This document shows, in pieces, positions 3,447 to 54,418 of a stretch of 64,000 bases of DNA; position 1 is the stretch's first letter, and the number at the start of each line of letters is the position of its first letter. The stretch comes from a bacterium (lineage in GTDB: Bacteria; Patescibacteriota; Minisyncoccia; 1-14-0-10-42-19). The notes beneath the pieces were generated by a model, which searched no databases, was not told where the DNA came from, and saw nothing but the letters and a program-made list of their open reading frames with translations. The stretch is from positions 31,090 through 95,089 of the forward strand of contig JAUYHD010000004.1 in the NCBI GenBank assembly GCA_030690215.1, read 5' to 3'. The position numbers and the translations under genes are program-made.

Positions 3447-6400
3447 TTAACTTTTCGCTTTTTCTCTTTCCTCTTGAGAAAGCTGCTGGCGTTCGCGCGC
3501 AAGGCGTCGCTCTTCAATGGCTTCGGTAAGATCCACTCCCTTTAATTCAACATCAAGCGCAAGACCTTTTAATTCATTAATCAATACATGAAATGATGTC
3601 GGCAAATTCGGCGTTTTAAATTCCTCCCCGCGAACAATAGAATCGTACGCTGCCGCGCGTCCAAGCACATCATCGGATTTTATGGTGAGCATCTCCTGCA
3701 AAAGATATGCTGCTCCATATCCTTCAAGCGCCCAGACTTCCATCTCTCCAAATCGCTGGCCTCCCCCCTGGGCTTTCCCCCCGAGAGGTTGCTGTGTAAT
3801 GAGCGAATACGGTCCGATGGAACGCATATGAATCTTGTCTTCCACCATGTGAATCAATTTCATCATATAAATTTGGCCTACGGTTACAAGATGGTCAAAT
3901 TTTTCACCGGTGCGCCCATCATAGAGCTCTACTTTCCCCTCTCGCGGCAAACCGGCTTTTTCCAATTCTGATTTAATTTCTTCCACAGTTGCGCCTTGGA
4001 ACGGAGGCACAAGCGCTTGGTACCCCAGCCGTTCGGCAGCCCATCCCAAATGAGTTTCAAGGATCTGCCCGATATTCATACGGCTTACCACACCGAGAGG
4101 ATTTAAAATCATATCAACGGGAGTGCCATCCTCCAAATACGGCATATCTTCTACCGGGAGTATTTTTGAAATAACCCCTTTGTTTCCATGGCGTCCCGCA
4201 AGCTTGTCTCCTACAGAAATTTTTCTGAGTTGCGCAATTTCTATTTGAATTAATTTAATAACTCCCGTATCAAGCTTGTCTCCCCGATCGCGAGAAAACA
4301 CCTTAACGCCTACCACCCGCCCCTGCTTCCCATGCGACATGCGAAGCGAGGTGTCGCGCACATCACGCGCTTTTTCCCCAAAAATAGCCCGAAGCAATCG
4401 TTCTTCCGAAGTAAGCTCCGCTTCTCCTTTCGGAGTAATTTTCCCTACAAGAATGTCGCCCGATCGAACCTCAGCACCAATTCGCACAACGCCATCTTCA
4501 TCTAAATCTTTCAATTTATCCTCCCCGACATTCGGAATGTCATACGTCGTAACTTCCGGACCAAGCTTTGTATCGCGTACGGGGATAGAAAAATCTTCAA
4601 TATGCACCGACGTAAAAATGTCTTCGTGCATCAGCTTTTCAGAAATAACGATTGCGTCTTCGTAATTAGCGCCTCCCCATGATACAAACGCAACCTTAAT
4701 ATTTTGACCCAATGCTACCTGCCCGTCTTGTGACGAAGATACATCTGCGAGAATATCGTCCTTCTTTACTTTATCGCCGGGGCTGACAAGCGGCCGTTGA
4801 GTAATAACCGTGTATTCATTTGAACGAAGATAATTCAATAACGGATATGTCGTGTCTTTTCGCTTTTCATTGCGGATGACAATCTTTTTTGCATCGGCAA
4901 ATTTTACGGTCCCTGCCTCCTCTGCCAAAATTAACCGGCCGGAATCGCGTGCTGCTTTTTCCTCAAAACCCGTCCCAACATACGGCACCTGTGCCTTTAC
5001 GCATGGGACTGCCTGGCGTTGCATGTTCGCGCCCATCATGACACGGTTTGCGTCATCATGCTCCAAAAACGGAATAAGAGACGTTGCGATGCTGAATGCC
5101 TGAAAGGGCGCTACATCAATCAAATCAACTTCTTCCACAGAGACAACCCCCGCTTGGCCCTTGGCGCGCGCCGGGACTTTCTCTTGAAGTATTTTTCCGT
5201 TTTCATCATACGAAATGGTTGATGGAGCAATATTTTCTTCAAGTTCTTGAAAAGCGGTAAGATACGTTATTTCATCGGTAATTATGCCGTTTACAACTTT
5301 TCTGTACGGAGTTTCAAGGATGCCAAAATCATTCACGCGGGCGAAACTCGCCAAATGCAACACAAGACCAATGTTCGGACCTTCCGGTGTTTGGATGGGA
5401 CAAATCCGGCCATAATGTGAGGGGTGGGCGTCACGAACTTCAAACCCGGCGCGCTCGCGTGTTAATCCTCCTTGCCCCAATGCTGAAACGCGGCGAAGAT
5501 GTTCCAGCTCGGCCAAGATATTGTCCTGATCCATGAATTGTGAAAGCTGGTTTGTTGTAAAGAATTCTTTAAGCACTGCCATAATCGGACGGGAATTGAT
5601 AAGCTGGGCCGGCGTCATTGTATAAATATCAAGCGTACTCATGCGATCTTGTATGATGCGCTTCATCCGCGTAAATCCAACACGCAAACGCTGCTGCAGC
5701 AATTCTCCGACACCGCGGATACGGCGATTGCCCAAATGGTCAATATCATCGGGTGAGGCGTGAGGTGTATTATTAAAATCAATAATGCGGCGAATAACCT
5801 CAACAAGATCTTCCTTTCTCAAAGTGCGGCTTGCTTCTTCAATCTTATCCAGTGGAAATCCGAGCCGTTCGTTAATCTTATAGCGTCCGACAACCGAAAG
5901 GTCATATCGTTCAGGAGAAAACATACCCTCAAGAAGTTCTCGCGCGTTGTCAATGGTTGCGAATTCTCCGGGTCGGATACGTTTGTAAATTTCCACATAT
6001 GCCTCATCCACCGTTGAGGTTGGGTCCCGGTCAAGCGTTTCTTCCATAAATGACACAGAACCCTTGTCTGCCCCATGAAATGCGTCTTTAATTGATTCGT
6101 CAGTTTCAAAACCAAAAATGCGCAAAAGCGCCGATACCGGTATCTTTCGCTTACGGTCAATGCGAACGTATAATGTATTGTCTGACCCTGTTTCAATCTC
6201 AATCCATGCCCCCCGGGAAGGAATGATTTTCGCGCCGAAAAATTTCTTTCCGCGAAGCACATTTGCCGTAAAATACACGCCAAAAGAGCGCGCAATCTGA
6301 GAAACGATTACACGCTCCACCCCATTTACAATAAACGTACCGCGGGATGTCATGAGCGGTATATCAGCAAGAAAAATTTCCTGCTCCTTTGATTCTTTTG

Positions 6401-6848: not shown

Positions 6849-7041
6849 CCCGTTAGAAATCTGGCCTGTGGATACAGAGAGTAAAGAAAATTTGATCTAT
6901 GTATTATGAAAATCCACCTTTGTGCGTACAAAAAAAATTTGAGCACAAATTTTTCTGTCCAAGACTTTCCGCCAGAGGCGGATCTGCCTCAGGCACGACT
7001 AACGAGGTCAAGACAAGCTGTGGATAATGCGCTATTTTTAT

Positions 7042-10250: not shown

Positions 10251-10299
10251 GACGCAAATCGCAATCCCGTATTAAAATTTAAAAAATAAGTACTTAAGA

Positions 10300-10402
10300 C
10301 CGGCGACTACCTACTCTCCCCTTGCGAGTACCATCGGCACTACCGCGTTTTACTTCTTTGTTCGGAATGGAAAAAGGTAGTTCCACGGCGTTAAGTCACC
10401 GG
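10300..10402 (-). rRNA. rrf: 5S ribosomal RNA (short form)
   Basis: The reverse complement aligns along its length with E. coli 5S (…CTACTCTCGC…TACCATCGGCGCTACGGCGTTTCACTTC…GTTCGG…). The terminal helix is ccggtgac/gtcgccgg. It lies just downstream of the 23S gene. Confidence 0.75.
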
Positions 10403-10865
10403 ACTTAAATCCTTATTTATTTTTTTAAATTTTAATTGCGGGAGGAACGGGTGGTGCTCCGCCTTCATTAAAACTCCGGCGAGACAAGCACGACGACAAG
10501 CCACCAGATTACAGCACACGACTACACAACAACAGGTATTTACCCCGCCTTAATTTTGCTCTTTATTACTTCATTTCTTTATTAAAAAGAAAGAGCGTTA
10601 TATTGCCGGCAATGCGCTTCGTCCATACGGGGTGTGCTATCCGCACACGCGCATTGCAAAACAATACAAAGCAAAATTAAAGCGGGGTCTCAATTCCGCC
10701 ATGCCATTCTCTATTTCCTAAAGGAACGGCGGAATTGGATAACCATCACATATTTCAGCGGGATTGACCACTTAGTACAGCTCGGCTTAACTCCTCACAG
10801 AGCGTACACCTGCTGCCTATCAACCTCGTCATCTCCGAGGGGTCTTAATGATTCCTAATCTTGAG

Positions 10866-10903
<38 letters not shown>

Positions 10904-10992
10904 TCCCGACATAGCTACCCAGCGATGCTCTTGGCAGAACAGCTGGTACACCAGAGGTCAGTTCTCTTCGGTCCTCTCGTCACATTCTCCCC

Positions 10993-11805
10993 TATTTCTA
11001 GGAGTGCAGACTATATCTTCACCTTTCTTTAATAAAAAGTTAAGGTGTTGGCGTATTACAAACATAAGCCTGTTTCTTTTGAAAGAAACTTTCCGGCATT
11101 ATGAAAGTCCGCTCCGACATAAAGTCAGAGACAAGTCGTTACGGGGTCAGACCTAAAATTTTATGCAATTCGCTTCTTGTTTTTTTCTTTTTGGTAACGT
11201 AATTTTGACTTTGAATAACCAAAATCAGATCAACAAGTTTTGTCAATTGCCTTTTCGTTAGCTTTTGGAACTTTGTGTTGGATAACACTTCACACGCTTG
11301 TAAGAGCGCGCGTGTTTGAGGTTTTTTAAAACGAATATACGGCAACAAACTTTTAAGAATATTTCTTATCTGTTTATAACCATTTATTCGCAGCTCAGTC
11401 ATTCCATCATTTCTGTCAGAAATATAACCGATACCCAAGACTTCTTTTATCCAATATAAAGTCTTTTTATGCCTAGCATCTTGATAAAAACAAATTGTAG
11501 TCATAAAACGAATCCCTCGTTTGCTATCGCTTCGCTTTTTGAGCTGAAGCATAAGACTCCCATCTCCATCAAGAAAACCAGCAATATACGCGAACTTAAT
11601 TTTAGATCGACTTCCCACGATATTATCTTACTCTATTTCTGGTCCTCAAGCGAATAGTAATATCAAAGACCGTATGATATTACTTTTCATCGAACCGAGA
11701 AACATGAATGAAGATTCCACCGTTATTAGCCACTTTTTCATCACACATTTCTGCGTGAAGTAGCAAGGCCCCAAAAGGGCTTACTAGAAGAAACTCCTCT
11801 CAAGA
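10993..11805 (-). mobile_element. Putative group I intron in the 23S domain V/VI region carrying a LAGLIDADG homing endonuclease gene
   Basis: About 810 bp replace roughly 35 nt of conserved sequence between the exon blocks '...ggtcctctcgtcac' and 'gcagtagataggagaccaacctgtctcacg'. Confidence 0.65.
11139..11618 (-). CDS. LAGLIDADG homing endonuclease (single-motif, I-CreI-like size)
   Basis: A 159-aa ORF with the motif YIAGFLDGDGSLMLQ, lying inside the 23S insertion. Confidence 0.85.
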   Translation of the reverse strand: MGSRSKIKFAYIAGFLDGDGSLMLQLKKRSDSKRGIRFMTTICFYQDARHKKTLYWIKEVLGIGYISDRNDGMTELRINGYKQIRNILKSLLPYIRFKKPQTRALLQACEVLSNTKFQKLTKRQLTKLVDLILVIQSQNYVTKKKKTRSELHKILGLTP

Positions 11806-11835
11806 ATCAACGCCTGCAGTAGATAGGAGACCAAC

Positions 11836-12208
11836 CTGTCTCACGCATGTTTTGCTTCGTAAACCCGCTGGCCTGCGCAGAATATACGCAGAATCACGCA
11901 GACACGAAACATTCCCGCTATTACTAGCGGCATTGGACTATATCTTCATCCCACTTGTGCTGGGAGGCTAACATGTAGTCTCTACAGGGTCATAAGAAAA
12001 TATAAATGAATTTTTCTTAGACTTCCCTCGGTATTGTCCTTATGAAAGGATTTTACCGATATAAGTTAGCTTCTCGCTCAAAAATTACTCTTTGAGGCCG
12101 CCGTGATTGAGGTTGTTTCCTATCTTTATTTCATAGACGAAAAATATGTCGTTGGATTCAAACAGTCGATGAGCCAATCAGTAGTTCAAGATCGTAATGC
12201 GCGATTAG
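11836..12208 (-). mobile_element. Putative ORF-less intron in 23S between ...CTGTCTCACG and ACGGTCTGAACCCAGCTCGCG
   Basis: A 375-bp insertion splits the contiguous conserved sequence GAGACAGTTCGG.../...ACGTTCTAAACCCAGCTCGCG, which is uninterrupted in E. coli. Confidence 0.55.
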
Positions 12209-12241
12209 CGCATCAACGGTCTGAACCCAGCTCGCGTGCCA

Positions 12242-12320
<79 letters not shown>

Positions 12321-12917
12321 GCTTCGTCGATATGGACTCTTGGAAGCGACCAGCCTGTTATCCCCGGAGTAGCTTTTATCCGTTAATCTTCCGCGGCGTC
12401 TAGTGCCCACGGTCGGTTCACTATGTTCTGCTTTCGCATCTCTTTTTATACATGAAAGCATAAAAAGTTCCGAAATATTCGGAAGTTTGACATGTCCGTC
12501 TTACAGTTAAGCCAGCTTATGCCATTGCGCTATCGGCGCGATTTCCATCCGCACCTAGCTGACCTTGATAAACACCTCCGTTACTTTTTAGGAGGTAAGC
12601 GCCCCACTTAAACTGCCCACCAGATACTGTTCCCGTGCGTTTTTGCCGCAAAGGTTAGAGTCTAAAAATGAAAAGATGGGTATTTCACTGTTGGCTCCAT
12701 GCCGCCCAAGAGCAACACTTCAAAGCCTCCCCACTATGCTACGCATTACATTCTTAGAGCCAATATCAAGTTGCAGTAAAGCTTCCGGGGTCTTTTCGTC
12801 TAACTGCAGGTAACCGGCATCTTCACCGGTATTGTATTTTCACCGGGCTACTCCCCGAGACAGTCCCCCAGTCGTTACGCCTTTCGTGCACGTCGGAACT
12901 TACCCGACAAGGAAATA

Positions 12918-12953
<36 letters not shown>

Positions 12954-14299
12954 GACGAGGGCTTCGGTCGGTCAGCATCCCGCTAAAAGCGGGACACCAC
13001 CAACGTTAACCTTCTCGCATTGGTCAGGCGTCACCCTCTATACATCCTCTTACGAGTTCGCAGAGAGCTGTGTTTTTGTTAAACAGTCGCCAGGGGTACT
13101 TTCGCTGCGTCCCGCTTTCCACACGATAAAAACCGTATGGTTAACGGGAAACTCTTATTGCTAACTTACGAGTGCTTTTTTGCCGAGTTCCTTGGGGAGC
13201 ACTCACCCGTTCGCCTTAGTCTTCTCGACCTGCTCACCTGTGTCGGTTTGCGGTACGGTTTCCATATACTTAACCCTAGAAGTTTTTCTTGGAAGGCTCT
13301 TCAAAAGAATTTTCTTCCGAAACGAAAGAATTTCTGCATTGCGCGAGATTTGCCTTGCGGCCGCTTTCCGGATTTGCCGGGAAAGCATCTCTGTACAACA
13401 CAAACGCGAATCCAATAACGCGCTCTTTTTTATGTCCTCCGTCCCTCCATTGGAAATATACGGAAGTCACGGAATATTAACCGTGTGTCCATCAACTGCG
13501 CCTTTCGGCATCGCCTTAGGACCGACTCACCCTTGGCTGATCACCATTGCCAAGGAAACCTTGAGCTTTCGGCGTGCAGGGCTCTCACCTGCATTGCGGT
13601 TACTTGTGCCAACATTCTCGCTTCCCAACGCTCCACCACTTCTCACGAAGCAGCTTCACTGCATTAGGAATGTTCTCCTACCGCGTTATGCAAAAGCATA
13701 ACACCCTCACCTTCGGTACTCTGCTTGAGTCCCGATTATTTTCGGCGCAATATCTCTTGACGAGTGAGCTGTTACGCACTCTTTAAAGGATGGCTGCTTC
13801 TAAGCCAACCTCCTCGCTGTCTGAGAAATTTCACCACCTTGAAAACACTTAGCAGAGATTTAGGGACCTTAGATTGAGATCAGGGCTGTTTCCCTTTTGA
13901 CCGATGGAGCTTCGCCCCCATAGTCTAACTGCCCTTACAATACGTTCGGTATTCGGAGTTTGGTTGGAAAGCCGAGCTTTCGCCCTATGCATCCCATCCA
14001 GTAGCTCTACCCCCGAACGATAATAAAGACGCTAACCCAAAAGTTATTTCGGAGAAAACCAGCTATTCCCACGTTCGATTAGCTTTTCACTCCGACCCAC
14101 AGCTCATCCGATGACGTTGTACGATCAACCGGTTCGGACCTCCTTCCGCCTTTCGGCGAAATTCATCCTGGCCATGGGTAGCTCACGTGGCTTCGGGTCT
14201 TTTGCATGTTGCCTTTATTCTTCGCCAATTCACTCGCGTTAAAACGAGTGAATTGGAAAGAATGATGCGCGCTGTTAACACTCGGTTTCCCTTTGCCTC

Positions 14300-14860
14300 C
14301 CCCCGCTCTTTTGGCACTATTCCAGTAAACTATTTTGAATACGCTTCTTAAGATGCCCGATTACCGCTCCGTGATGTTTTAGTTTTTCTTCACGAAGCAA
14401 TGCATCTTTTTTACTAAGATACGATTCGTAATAAATAAGTTTGAATGGAGCGTAATGTTTTGTTGATCTATTTTCTCCTTGATTGTGTTCTTTCAATCTT
14501 CTCCGAAGATCATTCGTACTCCCCACATAGAAAAAATTTTTATTTTTACTTTTAAGAAAATAAACATAATACATAATCAATAATTATACCAACAAAATAA
14601 TAACGCCAAAAGAGCGGGGTTAGACGAGCAGCATGCAAAAACTCGTTGGCTCATTCTTCAATAGGCACCCGGTCACTCGTACCTCGCTCTCGCTCGGCAC
14701 TTCGTAATTTTCAATTTTTAATTTCTAATTTTTAAACATTTGAAAATTGGAACATTAAACATTGAATAAAAATTGAGAATTGAAAATTAAAAATTTTGTG
14801 CTGAACAAAAGTGAGGCACAAGCTCCCAGTCCTTGTAAGTATATGGTTTCAGGTACTATT
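14300..14860 (-). mobile_element. Intron-like insertion in the 23S 5' half carrying a GIY-YIG endonuclease gene plus an AT-rich low-complexity tail
   Basis: 23S-conserved sequence resumes on both sides (about 14290 and about 14870, CTCACGGTACTAGTTCACTATCGGTC). The insert contains the ORF 14317..14580 and 'aattgaaaatt' repeats. Confidence 0.5.
14317..14580 (-). CDS. GIY-YIG nuclease (catalytic domain only, 87 aa)
   Basis: Motifs YYVYFLKS...FYVGSTNDLRRRLKEHN, matching the GIY/YIG/Arg/Glu pattern. Confidence 0.85.
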   Translation of the reverse strand: MIMYYVYFLKSKNKNFFYVGSTNDLRRRLKEHNQGENRSTKHYAPFKLIYYESYLSKKDALLREEKLKHHGAVIGHLKKRIQNSLLE

Positions 14861-14880
14861 TCATCGCCCTCATCGGGCTG

Positions 14881-14920
<40 letters not shown>

Positions 14921-15299
14921 TTGAAGCGTATTTAGCCTTGGGAGCTAGTGCTCCCGGCTTCCCCCGAGGCATTCGTTCCTCGAGGTACTCAAGAGTACAT
15001 TCCGAGAGACAGAGATGATTTTCGTGTACGGGGCTATTACCCTCTTTGGCCCGCCTTTCCAGACGAGTTCTACTAACCAAATCTCTTCTTGTAAATCTCT
15101 CCTGAGAGTAAACTCTCAATGAATGTATCTTTCAACCCCCCTCGACTCGATGCTACGCACCTCGCTCGGGGTAAACCCATCTTTTAAAAAACGAAGATTG
15201 GGCTTGCCCTGAGTGAGATTCGCAGAATCGAATCGAAGGGTTTGGGCTCTTCCCGTTTCGCTCGCCGCTACTAAGGGAATGGACCACATCTCGCTTCGC

Positions 15300-15670
15300 T
15301 CGAGTGGAATTCCCAATTTTCAAGCACCAATTTCAAAACAAATCCCAATGACCAAAATCCAAAACAAGGGTTTTTGAAAATTGAAACATTAAAAATTGAT
15401 TGCCCGCCCAAAGGGCGAGGTCTCGCCTAAGGCGGAAAAATTAGAAATTAAAAATTGGAAATTCCGCGCCGAACAAAGTGAGAAGCAGCATTGTTTTCTT
15501 TTCCTCTAGGTACTGAGATGTTTCACTTCCCTAGGTGCGCTCCGCGCTCTGCACGGAAACCCAAATTTCCAAGCACCAACCCCCAAACAATGCAAAAATT
15601 CAAATGACCAAAACGGATTTGGAATTTGAAATTTAGAATTTGTTTGGAATTTGGATTTTGTAATTTAGGA
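15300..15670 (-). repeat. Two related AT-rich expansion inserts in the 23S 5' domain ('cc(a/c)aatttccaagcaccaa...caaatgaccaaaa' copies at about 15318 and about 15558, plus 'aattgaaa/aatttgga' low-complexity runs)
   Basis: Direct repeat and low-complexity sequence lying between conserved 23S blocks. Confidence 0.5.
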
Positions 15671-16106
15671 TTTCCGTGCAAAGCACGGTCTCCGTGGTTT
15701 ACACGGAGGGGTTTCCCCATTCGGACATCTCCGGATCAAAGGTTGCTAGTCACCTCCCCGAAGCTTATCGCAGACACGCCACGTCCTTCATCGCCACTTC
15801 AAGCCAAGGCATCCGCCATATACTCTTATTCCCGCTGAAATATACAATGATTATAAATGCTATAATCACCTGTTGTTTATATTCTATTGTAAATTTGCTC
15901 ACCTTTACTGCCGGCATCTGTTTAATAAAAAAATGATAAACAGGTGTCGGGAGTAAAAATATTGTGTACCCTCCTCCGCACTTCTCCGCTAAAGCTCCGA
16001 AGTGCTTCGGGCGGGTTATTTTTCGCAACTACGCTTCGCGTAGGCAAAAAATGAATAATCGCGCCGCAAGCAGTGCGATATCTCACGCTATGCTTGCAGC
16101 TTTGCG

Positions 16107-23822: not shown

Positions 23823-23954
23823 AGCTTTTCCCCCGTTAGGCTACATCGAAACATCGTACTTGTTTTATCAAAAACAATATTCCGATTATTGCCTTCACAT
23901 GTATGTTAACGATAATCCTTTATACTACCCCGTACGATGAAGATATAAAACATT

Positions 23955-23994
23955 CGATGTTGCCATACGGGGCATACCCCGTATGGCAACATCG
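23955..23994. repeat. Near-perfect 18-bp-arm palindrome 'cgatgttgccatacgggg cata ccccgtatggcaacatcg'. It is the core of dispersed repeat family B.
   Basis: Seen directly. Related copies are at 24100, 24460, 24765, 25775-26095, 41395-41475 and 41595, with short variants elsewhere. Confidence 0.8.
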
Positions 23995-24074
23995 AAAAAC
24001 GTCTTCCTTGCTGCATCTACTCGCATAATCTTAGAATTATACACAAAAAACCAATATTTCTTTGCTAATTTGTA

Positions 24075-24353
24075 TTATTCCGTAAGACGTAAAGGTTTTG
24101 CTTTCGATGTTGCCATACGGGGTTCCACAAGAAAGTCGGGTATTTCTATTATCTTATTGGGCTTGCGTACACCCCTGCGAAGGCGAATCTTTGAGGGTGA
24201 AATATTAAAATAAACTGCAAGCGCGTCTAGTACCGCTCTGTTTGCTTTGCCCCCTTCCGCTTTTTCTTTTACATACACATCAAAAGAATCATTTTTCTTT
24301 TGAATAATCGCGTCTTTCGGCGACCGGGTATGGGCTTTCACTTTTACAAGCAT
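24075..24353 (-). CDS. DUF167 (YggU) family protein
   Basis: MLVKVKAHTRSPKD...FDVYVKEKAEGGKANRAVLDALAVYFNISPSKIRL matches the YggU pattern. The C-terminus probably reads into a repeat copy. Confidence 0.55.
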   Translation of the reverse strand: MLVKVKAHTRSPKDAIIQKKNDSFDVYVKEKAEGGKANRAVLDALAVYFNISPSKIRLRRGVRKPNKIIEIPDFLVEPRMATSKAKPLRLTE

Positions 24354-25501: not shown

Positions 25502-25774
25502 TTTTAAATTTCCAATTTTTATTCAATGACATAATTCCAAAATTTTTAAATAGTGTAAGAAATTGAATCATTAAACATTGATTATTCTTCGATTTTGCTC
25601 AGAATCTTAAAATCTTGAGCTTGCCGAAAGAAAAATTCAAAATTAAGAATTAAAAATTAAACACTACTGATACTATTTCGTATTATCCCGAAATACATAA
25701 AGATTTTGCTTTTCTGCCGGAGGCAGATCTGCTCGCCTCGTTTTCGCCTTGGCGAAGCGGGCCTTCGGCATGAC

Positions 25775-26095
25775 GATGTTGCCATACGGGGCATACCCCG
25801 TTAGGCTACATCGAAAAACGTCTTCCTCGCAAAACCGCCGAATATATTTCGATGTTTACCTTTTATTGTACTTTTACTAATAATACTTTGTGTTATTCCC
25901 GTAAGACGCAAAGGTTTTGCTTTCGATGTTGCCATACGGGGCATACCCCGTTAGGCTACATCGAAAAACGTCTTCCTCGCAAAACCGCCGAATATATTTC
26001 GATGTTTACCTTTTATTGTACTTTTACTAATAATACTTTGTGTTATTCCCGTAAGACGTAAAGGTTTTGCTTTCGATGTTGCCATACGGGGCATA
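25775..26095. repeat. Tandem array: a 150-bp unit present 2.1 times (one mismatch between units). Each unit contains a family-B palindromic core.
   Basis: Unit starts are at 25775, 25925 and 26075. The repeated translation (FTFYCTFTNNTLCYSRKT x2) is visible in the ORF track. Confidence 0.85.
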
Positions 26096-41204: not shown

Positions 41205-41620
41205 TTAAAAATTTCCAATTTTAAATTTCAAATTTTTCCGCCAGAGGCGGATCTGCCTCAGGCAGATAATCAATGCTGTAATAAATTAATTCCTAAAAAA
41301 TAAGGTCGTTTTATTCATTAAAAAATTAAAAATTGAATAAAAATTAAAAATTAATAATTAAAAATTAAACACTACTGATACTATTTCGTATTACCCCGTA
41401 AGACGTAAAGGTTTTGCTTTTCCGCCGAAGACGGATCTGCCTCAGGCACGACTAACGGGGCATACCCCGTTAGGCACTATCGCATGGTAAGCCATGCGTT
41501 CGCCGTTTATTATTCGTATCATAGGATTCGTTTTTCATTTATATATATATGGGGTGTATACCAATGACTTACAAGAACGCATTATGCGAGAGTGCCATAC
41601 GGGGCATATCCAAATATACT
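41205..41620. repeat. Cluster of dispersed-repeat copies (two family-A hairpins 'ccgccagaggcggatctgcctcaggca', family-B 'cccgtaagacgtaaaggttttgcttt...ccatacgggg', and AT-rich 'aattaaaaatt' runs)
   Basis: The sequence is identical to segments at 6955-6998, 25560-25830 and 24078-24125. Confidence 0.7.
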
Positions 41621-44374: not shown

Positions 44375-44611
44375 TTACAAGATACTTGTCATGATCCTTC
44401 GTTTGAGTTGAGCGAGCGCATTACCATCTTTTTTTAACGAGTGCTCTCGATGTCTCGCATCTTCCTCTGAAAAATACGCTTCATAATATCGCAACTCAAA
44501 CGGAGCATGTGATTTTGTTGAACGCACCTGCCCCTTGTTGTGTTCTTCAAACCTTCGTCTCAAGTCGCTTGTTGAACCCACATACAGATTCTTATCCATT
44601 TTGCCCCGCAC
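44375..44611 (-). CDS. GIY-YIG nuclease (catalytic domain only). The likely start is the ATG at 44597-44599.
   Basis: NLYVGSTSDLRRRFEEHNKG. The 5' end abuts repeat family C, copy 2. Confidence 0.8.
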   Translation of the reverse strand: MRGKMDKNLYVGSTSDLRRRFEEHNKGQVRSTKSHAPFELRYYEAYFSEEDARHREHSLKKDGNALAQLKRRIMTSIL

Positions 44612-44955: not shown

Positions 44956-45459
44956 GTGGGGGTTTGCTATACTAATTACAATACCATGAGAAAAATGATT
45001 ATACAAAAAACACCCTATTCTCTTACGATAAAACGAGGCAGAACGGGGTTGGGCTTATTCACAAACAACAGCATCAGAAAAGGCAGATTTGTAATTGAAT
45101 ACGGAGGCGACCTCCTGCCGACCAAAGAAGCAGACAGACGCGGCGGCAAATTTCTCTTCAAAATAAATAAAGATTGGGCAGTAGACGGAAAGTCGCGCAA
45201 AAATATTGCGCGCTATATGAATCATTCCTGCCGTCCAAACTGCGAAGACAAAATAAAAAAGAAAAGAAAAAGAATTTTTATATATTCCAAAAAAAACATC
45301 CGAGCCGGAGAAGAACTCTCATTTGACTACGGCAAAGAATATTTTGATGAATATATTAAACCGAAGGGATGCAAATGCATCACATGCCTAGAAAAAAAGA
45401 CGCGTAATACCCGTCACTACCATATCAAGGCCAACCGCTCCTATAAAAAATCCGCTTAA
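44956..45459 (+). CDS. SET-domain protein (putative protein-lysine methyltransferase) with a post-SET CxC motif
   Basis: NHSCRPNC, GEELSFDYG, CKCITC. Confidence 0.75.
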   Translation: MGVCYTNYNTMRKMIIQKTPYSLTIKRGRTGLGLFTNNSIRKGRFVIEYGGDLLPTKEADRRGGKFLFKINKDWAVDGKSRKNIARYMNHSCRPNCEDKIKKKRKRIFIYSKKNIRAGEELSFDYGKEYFDEYIKPKGCKCITCLEKKTRNTRHYHIKANRSYKKSA

Positions 45460-48365: not shown

Positions 48366-49019
48366 TTAATGAATTATCGTGCCGAGAGGAATCTTCCGCA
48401 CCGAATCAGCTACCGTGCCCAGAATTTCGTTTTCTATATCCAGAAGCGCTTCGTCGTGTGCAACCCAAAAGCCCTCAAACGCCAACACAACAACATCCAT
48501 AGGAACAGAAATCGTAAGAATATTTTTTTCTATATTCTCATAGCATTGACGAATCGTCTGTTCCCATTTTTCGTTGGCAAACTCCATGAACAAACCCTTA
48601 TTCATTGAAAAAAGAATGAATAAAAATACGGCTATCGGCATTGAATATGAAACATCGCCCCGCTCGGCATCGTCTACAATCGTTTGGTTCATAACATCAA
48701 GGTATTCAATAAAGCCGGCTGTATGTTTTCTTCCGAGTTTCTCAAGCTCTTCGGTCCATTGCCCCTGATCAAGCAATCCGCCCCATACGGTAACCCCAAA
48801 AATATGCGGGATTGCTTCAACATCAGAAATGCGCTGGTCATCAATTTCTCCGCAAAAAACGGCTCCTCCGTCCTGTACTACATACGAGGGCACATCTGCC
48901 ATATATTGAAAACCTATCTCTTTTAGCTGTTCTGCTACTGCCCGAAAATATGTCGCATCGGAACGTATAATCAAAAGCCTTTTTGCGTTTTTGTTTTCTT
49001 CAGTTGCCATACGGAACAC
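48366..49019 (-). CDS. Hypothetical protein (217 aa), co-operonic with the desaturase and the SET gene
   Basis: ORF only. It overlaps the upstream SET gene by 20 nt. Confidence 0.45.
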   Translation of the reverse strand: MFRMATEENKNAKRLLIIRSDATYFRAVAEQLKEIGFQYMADVPSYVVQDGGAVFCGEIDDQRISDVEAIPHIFGVTVWGGLLDQGQWTEELEKLGRKHTAGFIEYLDVMNQTIVDDAERGDVSYSMPIAVFLFILFSMNKGLFMEFANEKWEQTIRQCYENIEKNILTISVPMDVVVLAFEGFWVAHDEALLDIENEILGTVADSVRKIPLGTIIH

Positions 49020-49407
49020 TCTCCTCCCCTAATGTTTTATAATCGACTGTCAATTCCTCGCCCGCATTGATATCACGCTGTGCGAAGTAATTGTATTGCT
49101 CATCATGATATATGTTCGGGGTGTCCGAATGGTTCAAATACCATCCTATGCACATCTTGTGAAAATCATGAGGCACCCAAAAGCCATCTTCATCCCTCAC
49201 CCCATATTTTTCAATAAGAGCTTTTTCTTCCTCATATTCTATATCGGAAAATTTTATAAAATCAGCATCTTCATTATCAAATAATCCCAGAAAAGAACCG
49301 GCGGGGATATCAAGTGCTGCGAAAACTCCAACACCCTGGATGAAAGATTGTCCTAGCACAAAATAAATAGTGCGCTCTCCTTTCTTTCTAGTAGCAAAAC
49401 TTGCCAT
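49000..49407 (-). CDS. SET-domain protein no. 2 (136 aa). The start is reassigned to the ATG at 49405-49407, which follows a gggaggagag RBS.
   Basis: GVGVFAALDIPAGSF..., NHSDTPN, AGEELTVDY. The track ORF extends to 49620, but the internal ATG has a strong SD. Using it removes a 78-nt divergent overlap. Confidence 0.7.
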   Translation of the reverse strand: MASFATRKKGERTIYFVLGQSFIQGVGVFAALDIPAGSFLGLFDNEDADFIKFSDIEYEEEKALIEKYGVRDEDGFWVPHDFHKMCIGWYLNHSDTPNIYHDEQYNYFAQRDINAGEELTVDYKTLGEESVPYGN

Positions 49408-49542
49408 TTTTACTCTCCTCCCTCTCTTTATTGTTAATTCTTTAGAGAAAATATCATTTTTTGTGTGGTTTGTCAATTGTATTAGTGGGCAAACCATGGT
49501 AAAAATGAGAGAATATTCTTTAAAAATATACGGAGGCAATAA

Positions 49543-50898
49543 ATGCTTAAAGATGAACGGCTGGATTCTTTGGCAAAACACGGCGCGAATGTCGCGCAAT
49601 TTGCGAGCTTTGACCCCCAAGGCAATATACGATTTGCCCGGGTGCGAGAACTTCCAAAAATAAAAACGGAAGATCTGAAAAAAGTAATATCTTTTGTGCT
49701 GGAACGCGGATGCGGTTCCGCAAACATACGTACATTCCTTCCCGAAAAACCCGATGGCAATCCATTTGAGTACGGGCTTACCAACAGCGAAGAAATTGCC
49801 GCAAAAATACGCGCCTATGCGTCACAGGGGTACTACACCATTCTTAACGAAACGATAGATATACATGACGGCGGGCTTTCAGGGGTGCTGTTCGGCAAAA
49901 TCATGGAAGGAGCGCCAAAAGATACCCCTCGCTGTGTGGAAAAGCCCGGATGCATGCTTCTCCCCCGCTCCATTGGATTCCAACTTATCAACGCAATATA
50001 CGGATTTCATTTCCATACCCCGTACGGCGAACATTGCAGAATTGAATTTTCCGTACATCCCGCACCCACAGGCCATCTCCGAGACAACCAAATTATTTGG
50101 CAAGTGGACGAATATGAGGATAGGGCGACCCCGCAAACAACCCCCCAAATCTTATGGCCGAATAAATACAGTGAATTTATCGGCGATAAAACATTTGGTC
50201 TCCTGATTGCATATCTCTTGGGATTTCCTGTGCCATTTACACGCGTATTTGCACGGGGAGTTCCCATGTTTAATTTCGGGGCAGAAATAGGCAAAAAGGA
50301 ACCGGTATGGGTCCGCACAGCGCCGCGCATACAAACACCCGGACGATTCAAAACAAAACGCGGGTGGCTCGATCCGTTTGAGATTATGCAAAAAGACGAC
50401 CCCGACAACAAAGACATAGCCGCAATACTTATCCAAGACGGGCTTTCTGCGGAATATTCCGGATCTGCAATAACCGACTACGCGGGCAATATAATAGTTG
50501 AGGGATGCAAGGGATATGGCGATAATTTTATGCTTGGCACAATCGCTCCGGACAAGCTTCCGCAAGAAGTTCTGGGGGGCATCACATTCATCTACGGCCG
50601 GCTCAAAGAAATTCTAAATGACATTAGATTTGAATGGGTATACGACGGAAGAAGAATCTGGGTTGTCCAGCTTCATACCGGAAAATCAGAAACCTCGGAA
50701 AATGTCGTATATCCGGGTGTACCAAAGCAATGGATTGATTTTGATCCGAAAGACGGATTGGAAGTTCTCCGCGAAATGGCGAAAGAAGTGGAAGGAAAAA
50801 ATATAGGCATCGTCGTACGGGGCCATGTGGGCATCACTTCACATGTTGGCGATATTCTCCGGAGAGCGAAGATTCCTTCATATATAGACAAACGATAA
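49543..50898 (+). CDS. Hypothetical 451-aa protein, possibly a PEP-utilising-enzyme-like phosphotransferase (PPDK_N-like N-terminus plus a swivel-domain-like C-terminus). It lacks a PEP/pyruvate TIM-barrel domain.
   Basis: An RBS (acggagg) precedes the ATG. The N-terminal LAKHGANVAQF resembles the PPDK_N GGKGANL motif. The C-terminal GIVVRGHVGITSHVGDILRRAKIPS resembles the PEP-utilisers mobile-domain TSH signature. Weak, by-eye similarity. Confidence 0.4.
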   Translation: MLKDERLDSLAKHGANVAQFASFDPQGNIRFARVRELPKIKTEDLKKVISFVLERGCGSANIRTFLPEKPDGNPFEYGLTNSEEIAAKIRAYASQGYYTILNETIDIHDGGLSGVLFGKIMEGAPKDTPRCVEKPGCMLLPRSIGFQLINAIYGFHFHTPYGEHCRIEFSVHPAPTGHLRDNQIIWQVDEYEDRATPQTTPQILWPNKYSEFIGDKTFGLLIAYLLGFPVPFTRVFARGVPMFNFGAEIGKKEPVWVRTAPRIQTPGRFKTKRGWLDPFEIMQKDDPDNKDIAAILIQDGLSAEYSGSAITDYAGNIIVEGCKGYGDNFMLGTIAPDKLPQEVLGGITFIYGRLKEILNDIRFEWVYDGRRIWVVQLHTGKSETSENVVYPGVPKQWIDFDPKDGLEVLREMAKEVEGKNIGIVVRGHVGITSHVGDILRRAKIPSYIDKR

Positions 50899-51637: not shown

Positions 51638-51961
51638 TTAGTATCGGTTTCTGCCACCTCCAAAACCTCCGCCGTGGCCGCCGCGATTAAAGCCGCCTCC
51701 TTGCGGGCGCTCTTCTTGCGGGCGAGCTTCGTTAACGACTATTTTTCGTCCATCAAGCTCTTTGCCATTGAACATTTCAATCGCTTTTTGAGCTTCCTCT
51801 TCCGAAGACATTTCCACAAAACCGAAACCCTTTGAACGACCGGACATTTTGTCCATGATCACGGTCGCTGTTTCAACGGTTCCTGCCTTTGAAAATTCTT
51901 CTTTCAAAGTATCGTCAACGGTACTGTAGGACAAACTTCCTACATACAATTTTTTTGCCAT
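51638..51961 (-). CDS. RRM-type RNA-binding protein with a Gly-rich tail
   Basis: MAKKLYVGSLSYS (RNP2), KGFGFVEM (RNP1), GGGFNRGGHGGGFGGG. The start is reassigned to the internal ATG at 51959-51961. Confidence 0.8.
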   Translation of the reverse strand: MAKKLYVGSLSYSTVDDTLKEEFSKAGTVETATVIMDKMSGRSKGFGFVEMSSEEEAQKAIEMFNGKELDGRKIVVNEARPQEERPQGGGFNRGGHGGGFGGGRNRY

Positions 51962-52158
51962 TGATAGTGTATTTATGCTTTTAATTTTTGTAAGCCGACC
52001 TCCATTTGTATCTTTCAGCTTACATAAAATATAAGGAAAGGAAAACAAAACGTAGTACTTACTTATCCAACCATATTAGACTATTGCGTCTAAAAAGTCA
52101 AGCTCCGTCCGGTAAGGAGCCTAGGAAGCTTATATTTGGCCGATTCTAATCAAAAATT

Positions 52159-52266
52159 GATATCAAATACGTATCCAATATACGCTGGTCCATATCATAA
52201 AAATACTTTCCCTCCGAATGCAGTTTTTCTGCTAAATCCCGCCCCACAAAACGCCAATGCCAGGGT
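52159..52266. repeat. 108-bp perfect direct repeat, copy 1. It duplicates the 3' end of the M15 peptidase gene. An imperfect match of about 17 bp extends to the left.
   Basis: Identical to 53550..53657. Confidence 0.9.
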
Positions 52267-52277
52267 CCGGGAAAATT

Positions 52278-52826
52278 TTATTTTTCTTTCTGCTCGTTTC
52301 CTTTTTCTATTTCAGAGAGAATCTCTCTTGTTACCTCCGCCTCCGTTTTACCTTCTTGTTTTGCGTATATTCGTATTGTTTGTTCTGCCTTTCTTTTTCT
52401 AAGCTCTTTTTTCCATTGTTCTAATTTTTCTGGAGTGTCTGGTTTTTCTGTCTCTTCTATAAGATCAAATATAAGCTCCAAATCTGTTTTTATATTTTCT
52501 TTTGGGTACGATTCTTTTTTTCTTCCGTCCAGCTCTTCTTTTTTATGTTTTATCCACTCAGACACTTTCTCTGCTTGAGGACTATGTAAAAAATTATAGG
52601 CAGTTTCGATGCCTTTTTTTATCCCCTCGGGGGTTATGTTTATCTCAATTTTCTTTTTATTTAAATCAAAAGAGAGTTTTGTGGGCGACCCCTCTGCTTT
52701 GATTTTTGCTGATACGTCAAATCCTTTTATATTTTTTGCAACTTCAAAAAGGGAGCCGCCTCTCTCCTTTTTATTTTTTTCTTCTTCTCGCTCTTGCGAG
52801 CGTGTTTCGGAAGATTCAAATGTCAT
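52278..52826 (-). CDS. Hypothetical Lys/Glu-rich protein (182 aa)
   Basis: ORF inside the repeat-bracketed insert. Confidence 0.4.
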   Translation of the reverse strand: MTFESSETRSQEREEEKNKKERGGSLFEVAKNIKGFDVSAKIKAEGSPTKLSFDLNKKKIEINITPEGIKKGIETAYNFLHSPQAEKVSEWIKHKKEELDGRKKESYPKENIKTDLELIFDLIEETEKPDTPEKLEQWKKELRKRKAEQTIRIYAKQEGKTEAEVTREILSEIEKGNEQKEK

Positions 52827-52905
52827 AATTGTTTTTTTATACCCTCATTTTATTATAAATAATAAAAAAAAACAAGGACGTATCAATACCCGATACGCCC
52901 CCGAA

Positions 52906-53421
52906 TTAGAGTCTGCCAAGGGTCTTCATTGCTTCTCTCGCATCCTCTTTTGTTACCCCTGACGATTGATTTTCTTTTTGTTTTTGGGGTAGATTTGAAC
53001 AAAGCCACAAAAAAAGACCTACACTCCCAAAGAAAAAGGCGGCCTTCGCTACAAATATACCGTATGATTCCGTAGAAATTTTTAGCGTTTTGGGATGTGG
53101 AAAATTTTTAGATATAGTATCGCTTGCCAGTAGTTCATTTGTCCTTTCGCGAATTTCCCTCTCTATCTTATTTTTAAAGAAGCTTGCTGTGAACGGCAAA
53201 TGAATACTTAATTCTACCTGTGACGAGCTTACAACAATTGTCCCATCAATAGAATGGCCTTTTACCAAAAAGCGGAAATTCCCAATATTTCCTGCCCATT
53301 TTTCTTCTCCATCAGTGATTTTATCCCGAGAGTATTTTTTCATATGCGCAGAAAATCCCTTCAAGCGTTTCAGTGCCTCTTCTTCTGACAGACCGTGCGG
53401 AAGAGTAATGTTTAATTCCAT
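52906..53421 (-). CDS. Hypothetical protein with a PHA_gran_rgn-like N-terminal domain and a C-terminal TM helix
   Basis: MELNITLPHGLSEEEALKRLKGF...ELSIHLPFTASFFKNKIEREIRERTNELL resembles the polyhydroxyalkanoic-acid-system family pattern. Tentative. Confidence 0.4.
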   Translation of the reverse strand: MELNITLPHGLSEEEALKRLKGFSAHMKKYSRDKITDGEEKWAGNIGNFRFLVKGHSIDGTIVVSSSQVELSIHLPFTASFFKNKIEREIRERTNELLASDTISKNFPHPKTLKISTESYGIFVAKAAFFFGSVGLFLWLCSNLPQKQKENQSSGVTKEDAREAMKTLGRL

Positions 53422-53536
53422 TTTTGGATTCCTCCTTTTTACGATTTTTTAAGTTGCTGATTTCGCCTCACATAATATCACAAAAAATGAAGGAAACCAA
53501 CCCCGCCCCCAAATCCTGCCTATACCTCAACTGATT

Positions 53537-54418
53537 CTAGTCAAAGAAAGATATCAAATACGTATCCAATATACGCTGGTCCATATCATAAAAATACTTT
53601 CCCTCCGAATGCAGTTTTTCTGCTAAATCCCGCCCCACAAAACGCCAATGCCAGGGTTCAAAACGATAATAATCGTTGTTGTCCGGGTATGAAAGAACAA
53701 AGCCGTACCTATAGGCGTGTTGCAGGAGCCACGCGTATGCAGGAACACCTTCAAACGAATAAAAATCGGCTCCTGTAGCCCCTGTAGTAAAATCAATTGC
53801 CGTACCCAACTGATGCTCTGAATATCCCTGATCTGCCGAAAATTGGCTTGCTCCCGTACCGTACACGACAGAATAACTAGATTTTAATAGTGCCTGTTCC
53901 CCAAAAGATCGGAACGCCGAGATTATCTTGATATCAATACCTGCGCTTTCGGCATCTTCTAAAAGATTTTTTACATATGGAAAAACTTTTTCGTGTACAA
54001 ATAATGTTTTTTCGCCATTGTAGACATGGCGCGGGTCAATTGCGGCAAGCTCTTCGGGCACATAATTCTCGTTCAAAAAATAAATCTTTGAATATTTTTT
54101 GAGGAGCTCCGAATCAAGCGTCTGTAATTTTTCAAACACGCCGACCATGCTCTGGATGGTGCTTATCTGCGACGTCAAATCATCCATTCTCTTTTTTTCG
54201 GCATAATAATTCTGCTCAAACATATCCCGCTCAAGAAGAGCGTCTCCAAGCTTTTTTGATGTTTCTTCAAGAGCTTTTTCAGAAAACAAAATACGCTCTT
54301 CTAAAAATAACGCGTGCTTTTTTAAATCATAGTTTTGATACCCTCCATACGCAATAACGCCCGCGAAAAGAGCGCACAAAAAAACAAAACCATACAATTT
54401 AAGATGCTGTAATTTCAT
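53537..54418 (-). CDS. D-alanyl-D-alanine carboxypeptidase (VanY / peptidase M15B) with an N-terminal membrane anchor and a coiled region
   Basis: SAFRSFGEQ, SEHQLGTAIDF, EPWHWR. Confidence 0.8.
   Translation of the reverse strand: MKLQHLKLYGFVFLCALFAGVIAYGGYQNYDLKKHALFLEERILFSEKALEETSKKLGDALLERDMFEQNYYAEKKRMDDLTSQISTIQSMVGVFEKLQTLDSELLKKYSKIYFLNENYVPEELAAIDPRHVYNGEKTLFVHEKVFPYVKNLLEDAESAGIDIKIISAFRSFGEQALLKSSYSVVYGTGASQFSADQGYSEHQLGTAIDFTTGATGADFYSFEGVPAYAWLLQHAYRYGFVLSYPDNNDYYRFEPWHWRFVGRDLAEKLHSEGKYFYDMDQRILDTYLISFFD
53550..53657. repeat. 108-bp perfect direct repeat, copy 2, lying within the last about 36 codons of the M15 gene
   Basis: Identical to 52159..52266. Confidence 0.9.

Follow-up and report, generated by a model that had tools for sequence, protein, structure and literature searches.

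That inserted DNA can lie between two copies of a gene end is well known, both from prophage e14 in the icd gene of Escherichia coli and from single-crossover integration. Prophage e14 and phage 21 lie in the 3' end of icd, a housekeeping gene, and supply it with a substitute end; icd remains functional with minor amino acid changes, its native 3' end is left at the far side as a pseudogene fragment (icdC), and excision of e14 recombines the two gene ends (PMC13626634). In Campbell-type integration, the inserted DNA comes to lie between two direct copies of a homologous segment, no dedicated recombinase is needed, and the event is reversible via the repeats. Single crossovers of circularized DNA carrying a shortened homologous segment yielded duplications of the target, the end of lacZ, of 109 to 950 bp in E. 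coli (PMC3240628). Cis-mobilizable elements (CIMEs) carry a small cargo between direct repeats at a gene 3' end, have no recombination or transfer genes, and are defined by attachment (att) sites shared with a cognate integrative and conjugative element (ICE) or integrative and mobilizable element (IME), the integrase of which can act on them. Homology-facilitated illegitimate recombination (HFIR) in natural transformation requires homology at just one end of the foreign DNA, and its usual product is a deletion of recipient DNA with 3 to 10 bp of microhomology at the illegitimate junction (PMC3240628). Here, a locus of related layout is described, in which a 1,283-bp insert with two genes, designated X and Y, lies at the 3' end of an M15 (VanY/LdcB-type) peptidase gene of an uncultured member of the Patescibacteria. 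The DNA that was inspected is a 64-kb window (the whole analyzed stretch of 64,000 nucleotides) of a contig of at least 97 kb. The locus does not represent a new class of element.

Comparison of the window with itself revealed an exact direct repeat of 108 bp, the two copies of which (A and B) start 1,391 bp apart. The initial annotation of this DNA had reported perfect repeats at 52159-52266 and 53550-53657 with an imperfect extension of about 17 bp. The repeats were confirmed base for base, and the extension was found to pair 52142-52158 with 53533-53549 at four mismatches. No other long perfect repeat of this kind is present within the window, and an exact match of 108 bp is far beyond chance expectation. 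Within the M15 gene, the exact repeat comprises the last base of codon 254, codons 255 to 289, and two bases of codon 290. Codons 290 to 293 (from the third base of codon 290 onward), the stop codon (53537-53539), and four further bases of the M15 copy fall into the imperfect 17-bp extension, whereas the annotation had placed the last 36 or so codons and the stop in the exact repeat. On the minus strand, copy A reads in frame as PWHWRFVGRDLAEKLHSEGKYFYDMDQRILDTYLISIFD followed by a stop codon. The gene in use ends in LISFFD and copy A in LISIFD, each directly before the stop. The four mismatches correspond to two synonymous changes (TCT/TCA and GAC/GAT) and one Phe/Ile codon change of two bases; past them, identity resumes through the stop codon and four bases beyond it. 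The differences amount to 0 of 108 positions in the exact unit and 4 of 17 in the extension (Fisher P = 2.5e-4), and their packing into the terminal 17 of 125 bases is non-random.

The M15 protein, which scored 102.6 bits against Pfam VanY (gathering threshold, 25), has two syntenic relatives: P0002 (90% identical; JGI contig L001) and P0003 (74% identical; Logan contig L002). In the window, the order of genes on the minus strand is M15, X, Y, copy A, an RRM gene, and an ICMT/PEMT-type methyltransferase gene. Contig L001 has the order S8 protease, zinc-ribbon protein, M15, RRM, which is the window order without X and Y, and L002 has the order M15, RRM, ICMT, also without X and Y. The search for relatives with an empty site that the initial annotation had called for was thus carried out, and both contigs show an empty M15-RRM site. 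The M15 genes of these relatives end in ISIFD (L001) and ISLFD (L002) before the stop, and the last 18 nucleotides of the L001 gene match copy A and not copy B. Downstream of copy A, the window is 95% identical to L001 and contains the same intergenic region, promoter-like site, and RRM leader. Since the M15 genes of the empty-site relatives end in the manner of copy A, the displaced native end is copy A, and the end in use (ISFFD) arrived with the insert. LISFFD is the commonest C terminus in the wider M15 family (58 of 120), and the three closest relatives carry Ile or Leu at the variable position. The reconstitution of the gene end by incoming DNA that had been read from the repeats was thereby borne out: the last four codons and the stop codon of the M15 gene are supplied by the insert, the frame is preserved, and the original 3' end is left as a fragment.

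Comparison with L001 also bears on the origin of the repeat itself. The 108-bp unit is 89.8% identical to L001 (11 of 108 positions differ), and the rest of the M15 gene is 89.3% identical. That the unit is as far from L001 as the rest of the gene points to host-lineage sequence in both copies, which look host-derived; the 17 bp adjacent to copy B are not typical of the host lineage. An empty-site allele of the same strain was not recovered, exact look-ups of the M15 and RRM proteins in the contig index giving no match. The exact look-up of a neighboring 451-amino-acid protein returned only the same sample, and the 90%-identity cluster of the M15 protein has a single member. A second M15 paralogue was considered as the source of the fragment and rejected, since a tblastn search of the window found only the gene and the fragment.

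Analysis of the insert revealed, in this order, the substitute M15 end, a 111-bp spacer, gene X, a 79-bp spacer, gene Y, and 11 bp. Its GC content is 36.8%, and that of the window is 43.4%. Among 50 genes, Y ranks lowest in third-position GC (GC3 z = -2.6), and the value for X is reduced as well (z = -1.5). In composition, the insert is foreign and AT rich. The two-gene content given in the initial annotation, a PHA_gran_rgn gene and a Lys/Glu-rich gene in about 1.28 kb, was upheld. The deduced X protein matched PF09650 over profile positions 2 to 86 of 87 with 42.4 bits (gathering cutoff, 26.6), and it scored 16.6 bits against the stricter TIGR02610, below the threshold of 40.25. An AlphaFold model of X (pLDDT 84.5) predicted a beta-sheet-plus-helix domain followed by a long helix (residues 118 to 143), which may serve as a membrane anchor. 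Fold matches of the model to START/Bet v1-type helix-grip ligand-binding proteins were weak (TM 0.3 to 0.45, below 0.5) and are taken as a hint, not a result. For Y, the single-sequence structure model was poor (pLDDT 57.7). Inspection by eye of the 111-bp spacer revealed a strong ribosome-binding site for X and a plausible promoter, TTGGTT-17-TATTAT, which the promoter scan did not list. The insert encodes a self-contained operon of X and Y. The M15 fragment is in frame with Y, from which it is separated by the TAA stop of Y and four codons (NFPG), within the stretch 52146-52280 on the minus strand. The shared reading frame is probably a coincidence. An origin of Y as a leftover of the M15 gene body was rejected, as the two have no similarity and an in-frame arrangement is expected by chance in one of three cases. 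The coordinates of all features are given in Table 1.

Table 1. Features of the insertion locus and X-Y gene pairs in other contigs (positions in the window unless another contig is named)
Feature	Position	Strand	Basis
Foreign insert, 1,283 bp	52267..53549	-	absent from L001 and L002
Repeat copy A, 108 bp	52159..52266	-	exact identity to copy B
Repeat copy B, 108 bp, in M15 gene	53550..53657	-	exact identity to 52159-52266
M15 (VanY/LdcB-type) peptidase gene, 293 aa, intact	53537..54418	-	Pfam VanY 1.8e-29; NCBIfam LdcB/VanY families; identical to MDP2676161.1
Incoming substitute M15 end (third base of codon 290, codons 291-293, stop TAG, AATC)	53533..53549	-	four mismatches to copy A and L001
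Displaced native M15 3' end, 39 codons plus stop (PWHW...LISIFD, stop), promoterless fragment	52146..52265	-	last 18 nt identical to L001
Gene X, 171 aa, N-terminal PHA_gran_rgn domain, predicted C-terminal membrane helix, short charged tail	52906..53421	-	Pfam PF09650 8.5e-11
Terminator-like hairpin with T-run, after gene X	52873..52903	-	sequence scan
Promoter-like site for gene Y, TTGATA-16-TATTAT	52859..52886	-	10 of 12 consensus matches
Gene Y, 182 aa, Lys/Glu-rich, mostly helical	52278..52826	-	no Pfam, PHROG, or NCBIfam match
RRM promoter-like site TTGACT-17-TAATAT, left intact by insertion	52073..52101	-	sequence conserved in L001 and L002
RRM RNA-binding protein gene, native downstream neighbor of M15	51638..51964	-	Pfam RRM_1 2.2e-21; synteny in L001 and L002
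X-Y pair, window	52278-53421		
X-Y pair, L164	217-1657		
X-Y pair, L166	403-1377		
X-Y pair, L167	5337-6611		
X-Y pair, L165 (fused)	1159-2034		

Searching for homologs of the cargo genes by word-indexed searches of 5.8 billion proteins returned only self-matches, and no close relatives of X and Y were present in databases of 5.8 billion and 1.84 billion proteins. An exhaustive HMMER search with the first 100 residues of X revealed 612 distant relatives, the best of which were 40 to 48% identical. The contigs of four of these relatives (L164 to L167) were inspected. In L164, L166, and L167, the X homolog is directly followed by a Y homolog, and in L165, X and Y are fused into one protein of 291 amino acids. 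Y shares 28 to 39% identity with the X-adjacent genes of L164 and L166 and with the C-terminal half of the L165 fusion; a profile built from the Y homologs detected the neighbor of the X homolog in L167 at 2.5e-29. The motifs TPEG(I/V)KKG and QEGK.EAE are conserved in the Y family. The neighborhood of the pair differs from contig to contig, with a NUDIX gene and recR in one and a radical SAM gene in another, and in none of the four contigs is the pair accompanied by an adjoining M15 gene, a recombinase gene, or flanking direct repeats. The recurrence of this adjacency, once as a fusion, marks X and Y as a conserved functional pair. Upstream of the NUDIX gene that precedes X-Y in L167, at 4405-4612, imperfect repeats with a length of about 36 nt (CGAGAAACCC...GAGCGAGCC) form a short array.

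No integrase, resolvase, or transposase domain was detected by a Pfam scan of approximately 50 open reading frames (ORFs) of the window, and comparison of X and Y with Pfam, PHROGs, and NCBIfam gave no recombinase domain. The absence of an integrase noted in the initial annotation, which had also proposed looking for homologs elsewhere, is therefore extended from the insert to the 64-kb window. The scanned ORFs are ordinary chromosomal genes, among them rpoB, the genes for L10, L7/L12, and FtsW, ABC transporter components, and fatty acid desaturases. The stretches poor in ORFs are occupied by 23S and 5S rRNA, two tRNAs, small ORFs, and a group I intron that contains a LAGLIDADG ORF. Sister elements were sought at other M15 loci in genome and metagenome collections. 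At about 160 such loci among the matches listed, there was neither a duplicated 3' end nor an X-Y pair, and reuse of the same attachment site by related elements was not seen; these matches were at most 60% identical to the M15 protein, were not syntenic, and did not include contig L001. The junction sequence at copy B was not found in JGI metagenomes, and X, Y, and the whole 1.5-kb region had no match in IMG/VR or in phage or plasmid collections. A cognate ICE or IME sharing att sites was found neither in the window nor at the related M15 loci among the matches listed. An origin as a transposon or insertion sequence was rejected: no transposase was found in the insert or among the scanned ORFs, no inverted repeats were found at the ends of the insert, the duplication is 108 bp long, and one end is homologous to the target gene. 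A Xer/dif-type element is unlikely, as the cumulative GC skew falls steadily over 48 to 58 kb with no sign of a terminus, a dif-like site not having been searched for.

The locus was also examined in an independent assembly, the Logan k=31 assembly of run SRR13727534. Contig L003 of this assembly corresponds to window positions 52237-53579, that is, the insert plus 30 bases (k-1) of each repeat copy, and contig L168, which contains the RRM side, stops after the first 30 bases of copy A on that side. Both cargo-to-repeat junctions (Y to core and core to X) are present as k-mers in the reads. The k=31 graph branches at the repeat, and its contigs are compatible with integrated cargo or with an empty site accompanied by a free circle of 1,391 bp. 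In the deposited contig (97,115 bp; proteins MDP2676159-61), the cargo is in the integrated state. Insert, repeat, and flanks are known from one sample only.

Measured against the described systems, the e14/icd/icdC arrangement may be regarded as the closest textbook parallel. As in icd, foreign DNA occupies the 3' end of a gene and provides a substitute end, the target gene is predicted to remain functional with a minor amino acid change, and the native end persists on the far side. In contrast to e14, which is about 15 kb in size and has its own integrase, the present insert is 1.28 kb long with no recombinase found, and its repeat consists of 108 bp that are perfectly identical and of host type, every difference being confined to one edge. 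Recombination of e14 reportedly takes place at a short core. Of the features by which integrative elements are recognized, direct repeats (108+17 bp) together with an empty site in relatives (L001 and L002) are present here, but an encoded integrase was found neither in the insert nor among the window ORFs. The small cargo, the flanking repeats at a gene 3' end, and the lack of recombination and transfer genes match CIMEs, but the shared att sites and cognate integrase that define CIMEs were not found in the window or related loci. With HFIR, the locus shares homology at one end, the left junction lying in register within a conserved segment of the gene; it differs in that 108 bp are duplicated instead of deleted and the other junction is essentially without microhomology. 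The direct duplication of a chromosomal segment around inserted DNA corresponds to Campbell-type integration, in which 108 bp would lie at the lower end of the experimental range. Unlike the experimental cases, the present one is natural, from an uncultured genome for which we infer the pathway, and its homologous piece ends in 17 bp that are not of host type.

The explanation that is favored, at about even chances, is a recent duplicative insertion that happened once, has the topology of a single crossover (Campbell type), was carried out by host recombination, and could be lost by deletion between the repeats. According to this model, a circular DNA of 1,391 bp containing X-Y and a 125-bp fragment of an M15 3' end would have entered a Patescibacteria cell of the Parcubacteria type. 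One reciprocal crossover within the M15 homology, made by the homologous recombination system of the host with no dedicated integrase, would then have joined circle and chromosome. The M15 gene has stayed full length with a single Ile-to-Phe change through the incoming 17 bp (the codons for S-FFD, stop, AATC), which are the end of another M15 gene, and the native end, the intergenic region, and the RRM promoter have been pushed 1.39 kb downstream untouched. Recombination between the 108-bp repeats would delete the insert precisely and restore the native ISIFD end; such a deletion should be possible in every model considered here. Because duplications of 109 to 950 bp were obtained in E. coli (PMC3240628), a 108-bp repeat is within reach of host recombination. 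The host-like character of the 108 bp, together with the failure to find a recombinase or a sister element in the searches described above, favors a one-off, recombinase-independent event over a dedicated integrative element. Several points weigh against the circular donor. No circular form, second copy, or donor was seen, and the integrated order rests on the deposited assembly. Under Campbell-type integration the incoming molecule is a chimera, and a circle in which a non-host 17-bp end adjoins 108 bp of sequence perfectly matching the host must have been put together by an earlier event, which the model does not explain. Moreover, the X-Y pairs in the four other contigs are not beside M15, and the implied donor order M15-X-Y is unobserved.

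Other explanations were considered as well. The insert could be a decayed or non-autonomous site-specific element whose integrase was deleted or is encoded elsewhere, with an attP that carried the substitute M15 end and with the 108+17 bp as attL and attR. Direct repeats around foreign cargo, a rebuilt gene 3' end with the native end displaced as in icd/icdC around e14 (PMC13626634), and the empty sites in L001 and L002 agree with such an element, and the integrase search covered 64 kb of the contig. An element-borne gene end, however, should show scattered differences, whereas here the 108 bp are perfect and host-like (even the 90% identical relative differs at 11 positions) and every difference lies in the last 17 bp. 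Since the unit is host-like, a duplication of host sequence fits better than an att site brought by an element. The 11 bp between Y and the repeat leave no room for arm-type sites on that side. Given also that no integrase was found in the insert or among the scanned ORFs of the window, that no related element appeared at the M15 loci among the matches listed or in the viral, phage, plasmid, and JGI metagenome collections, and that X-Y pairs elsewhere lack flanking repeats, M15, and a recombinase, this explanation is considered unlikely. The initial view of the reconstituted gene end as the hallmark of site-specific integration is accordingly not established. The segmental duplication that had been offered as its alternative holds for the duplicated host sequence, but not for the 1,283 bp between the copies, which are foreign, nor for the 17-bp end of copy B, which is not a diverged native end. 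The mosaic of host-type and non-host sequence would be explained more directly than by a circle if insertion and 108-bp duplication occurred together in one illegitimate event, either HFIR or template switching during replication. DNA of a distant relative with the order M15-X-Y would pair with the conserved last M15 codons, producing the left junction, and its other end would be joined without homology 108 bp upstream, on the sister copy or after a template switch. Both 108-bp copies would then originate from one chromosome, and the 17-bp end would be of the family-consensus type. Type II/IV secretion ATPases, one of which (T2SSE) is encoded in the window, drive type IV pili, and in some bacteria such pili serve to take up DNA. 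For HFIR, homology at a single end of the foreign DNA suffices (PMC3240628), but the process usually deletes recipient sequence, which here is duplicated. Beyond the repeat, the right junction between Y and core shares only 1 bp instead of the usual 3 to 10 bp. The donor arrangement is again unobserved and the route is poorly documented, so that a single illegitimate event of this kind is judged distinctly unlikely.

An assembly artefact would dispense with integration altogether: the chromosome would be empty (M15-RRM), and a separate 1,391-bp circle or a second strain sharing the 108 bp would have been threaded into the contig. At each of the three repeat borders recovered (two in L003 and one in L168), the k=31 contigs stop exactly 30 bp into the repeat, and the restriction to one sample agrees with this. 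However, the Y-to-core and core-to-X junctions are real k-mers, so a molecule joining the cargo to the M15 fragment exists in any case, and a free circle that matched the host perfectly over 108 bp would in turn be this insertion in its excised form. In addition, the repeat is shorter than a typical 150-bp read, and spanning reads probably guided the deposited assembly. An artefact is thus held to be improbable. An old arrangement, in which M15-X-Y-fragment-RRM is ancestral and was lost precisely in the relatives while gene conversion kept the repeats identical, has in its favor that repeat-mediated deletion would remake a clean empty site. Gene conversion could homogenize the interior 108 bp, but not the mismatch-dense edge. 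Two independent precise losses (L001 and L002) would be required against one gain; the insert is compositionally foreign, and X and Y lack close relatives in the two protein databases searched. This history is scarcely credible, and the recent single-crossover insertion by host recombination remains the favored explanation.

Further features were observed at the locus and elsewhere in the window. The RRM leader, about 110 nt from the promoter-like site to the start codon (51965-52101 on the minus strand; L001, 1625-1768; L002, 4105-4240), is nearly identical in the window, L001, and L002 despite M15 proteins at 74 to 90% identity and contains a hairpin (GTAAGC...GCTTAC). It matched no Rfam family and may act as a cis-regulatory RNA leader. 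An intergenic repeat family with units of about 150 nt is present at 23953-24122 and 25774-26091, with related pieces at 41217-41448, 6948-6995, and 14746-14795. A 44-nt palindrome, near-perfect, is part of each unit (TTCGATGTTGCCATACGGGGCATACCCCGTATGGCAACATCGAA). A 1.7-kb block of three small genes, including one for a TPR protein, has a single unit on one side and a tandem pair (99% identical) on the other, so that small genes lie between repeats at a second place in the window. In the rRNA region (10298-15839, minus strand), the 23S match spans 3.7 kb for a model of 2.9 kb, and the 23S rRNA therefore probably carries insertions. The group I intron (11914-12119), the LAGLIDADG endonuclease ORF (11139-11618), which is the lowest-GC gene in the window, and the 5S rRNA lie beside it. 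Between the desaturase genes and the 451-amino-acid protein, which has no assigned family, there are three ORFs (44375-44611, 44956-45459, and 49000-49620), of which one, a small ORF, looks GIY-YIG-like by eye and two are marked as SET-domain proteins by the precomputed Pfam hits of Logan on L168.

It is conceivable, but very improbable, that the 1,391-bp unit of X-Y and an M15 gene-end fragment is a minimal integrase-less gene cassette that cycles between circular and integrated states by host recombination and about 100 bp of gene-end homology and that spreads among DNA-uptaking Patescibacteria. Such a cassette would be a general, unrecognized route of gene gain in the reduced genomes of this group. 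Whatever the route, the locus provides a snapshot, resolved at both junctions, of a small accessory operon entering a streamlined Patescibacteria chromosome with neither neighboring gene damaged and with the ancestral state kept in two relatives. It documents gene gain without visible mobile-element machinery at a locus that is likely to be unstable, as the perfect 108-bp repeats can delete the insert. It also exposes X, with its PHA_gran_rgn domain and putative membrane anchor, and Y as a conserved and sometimes fused pair.

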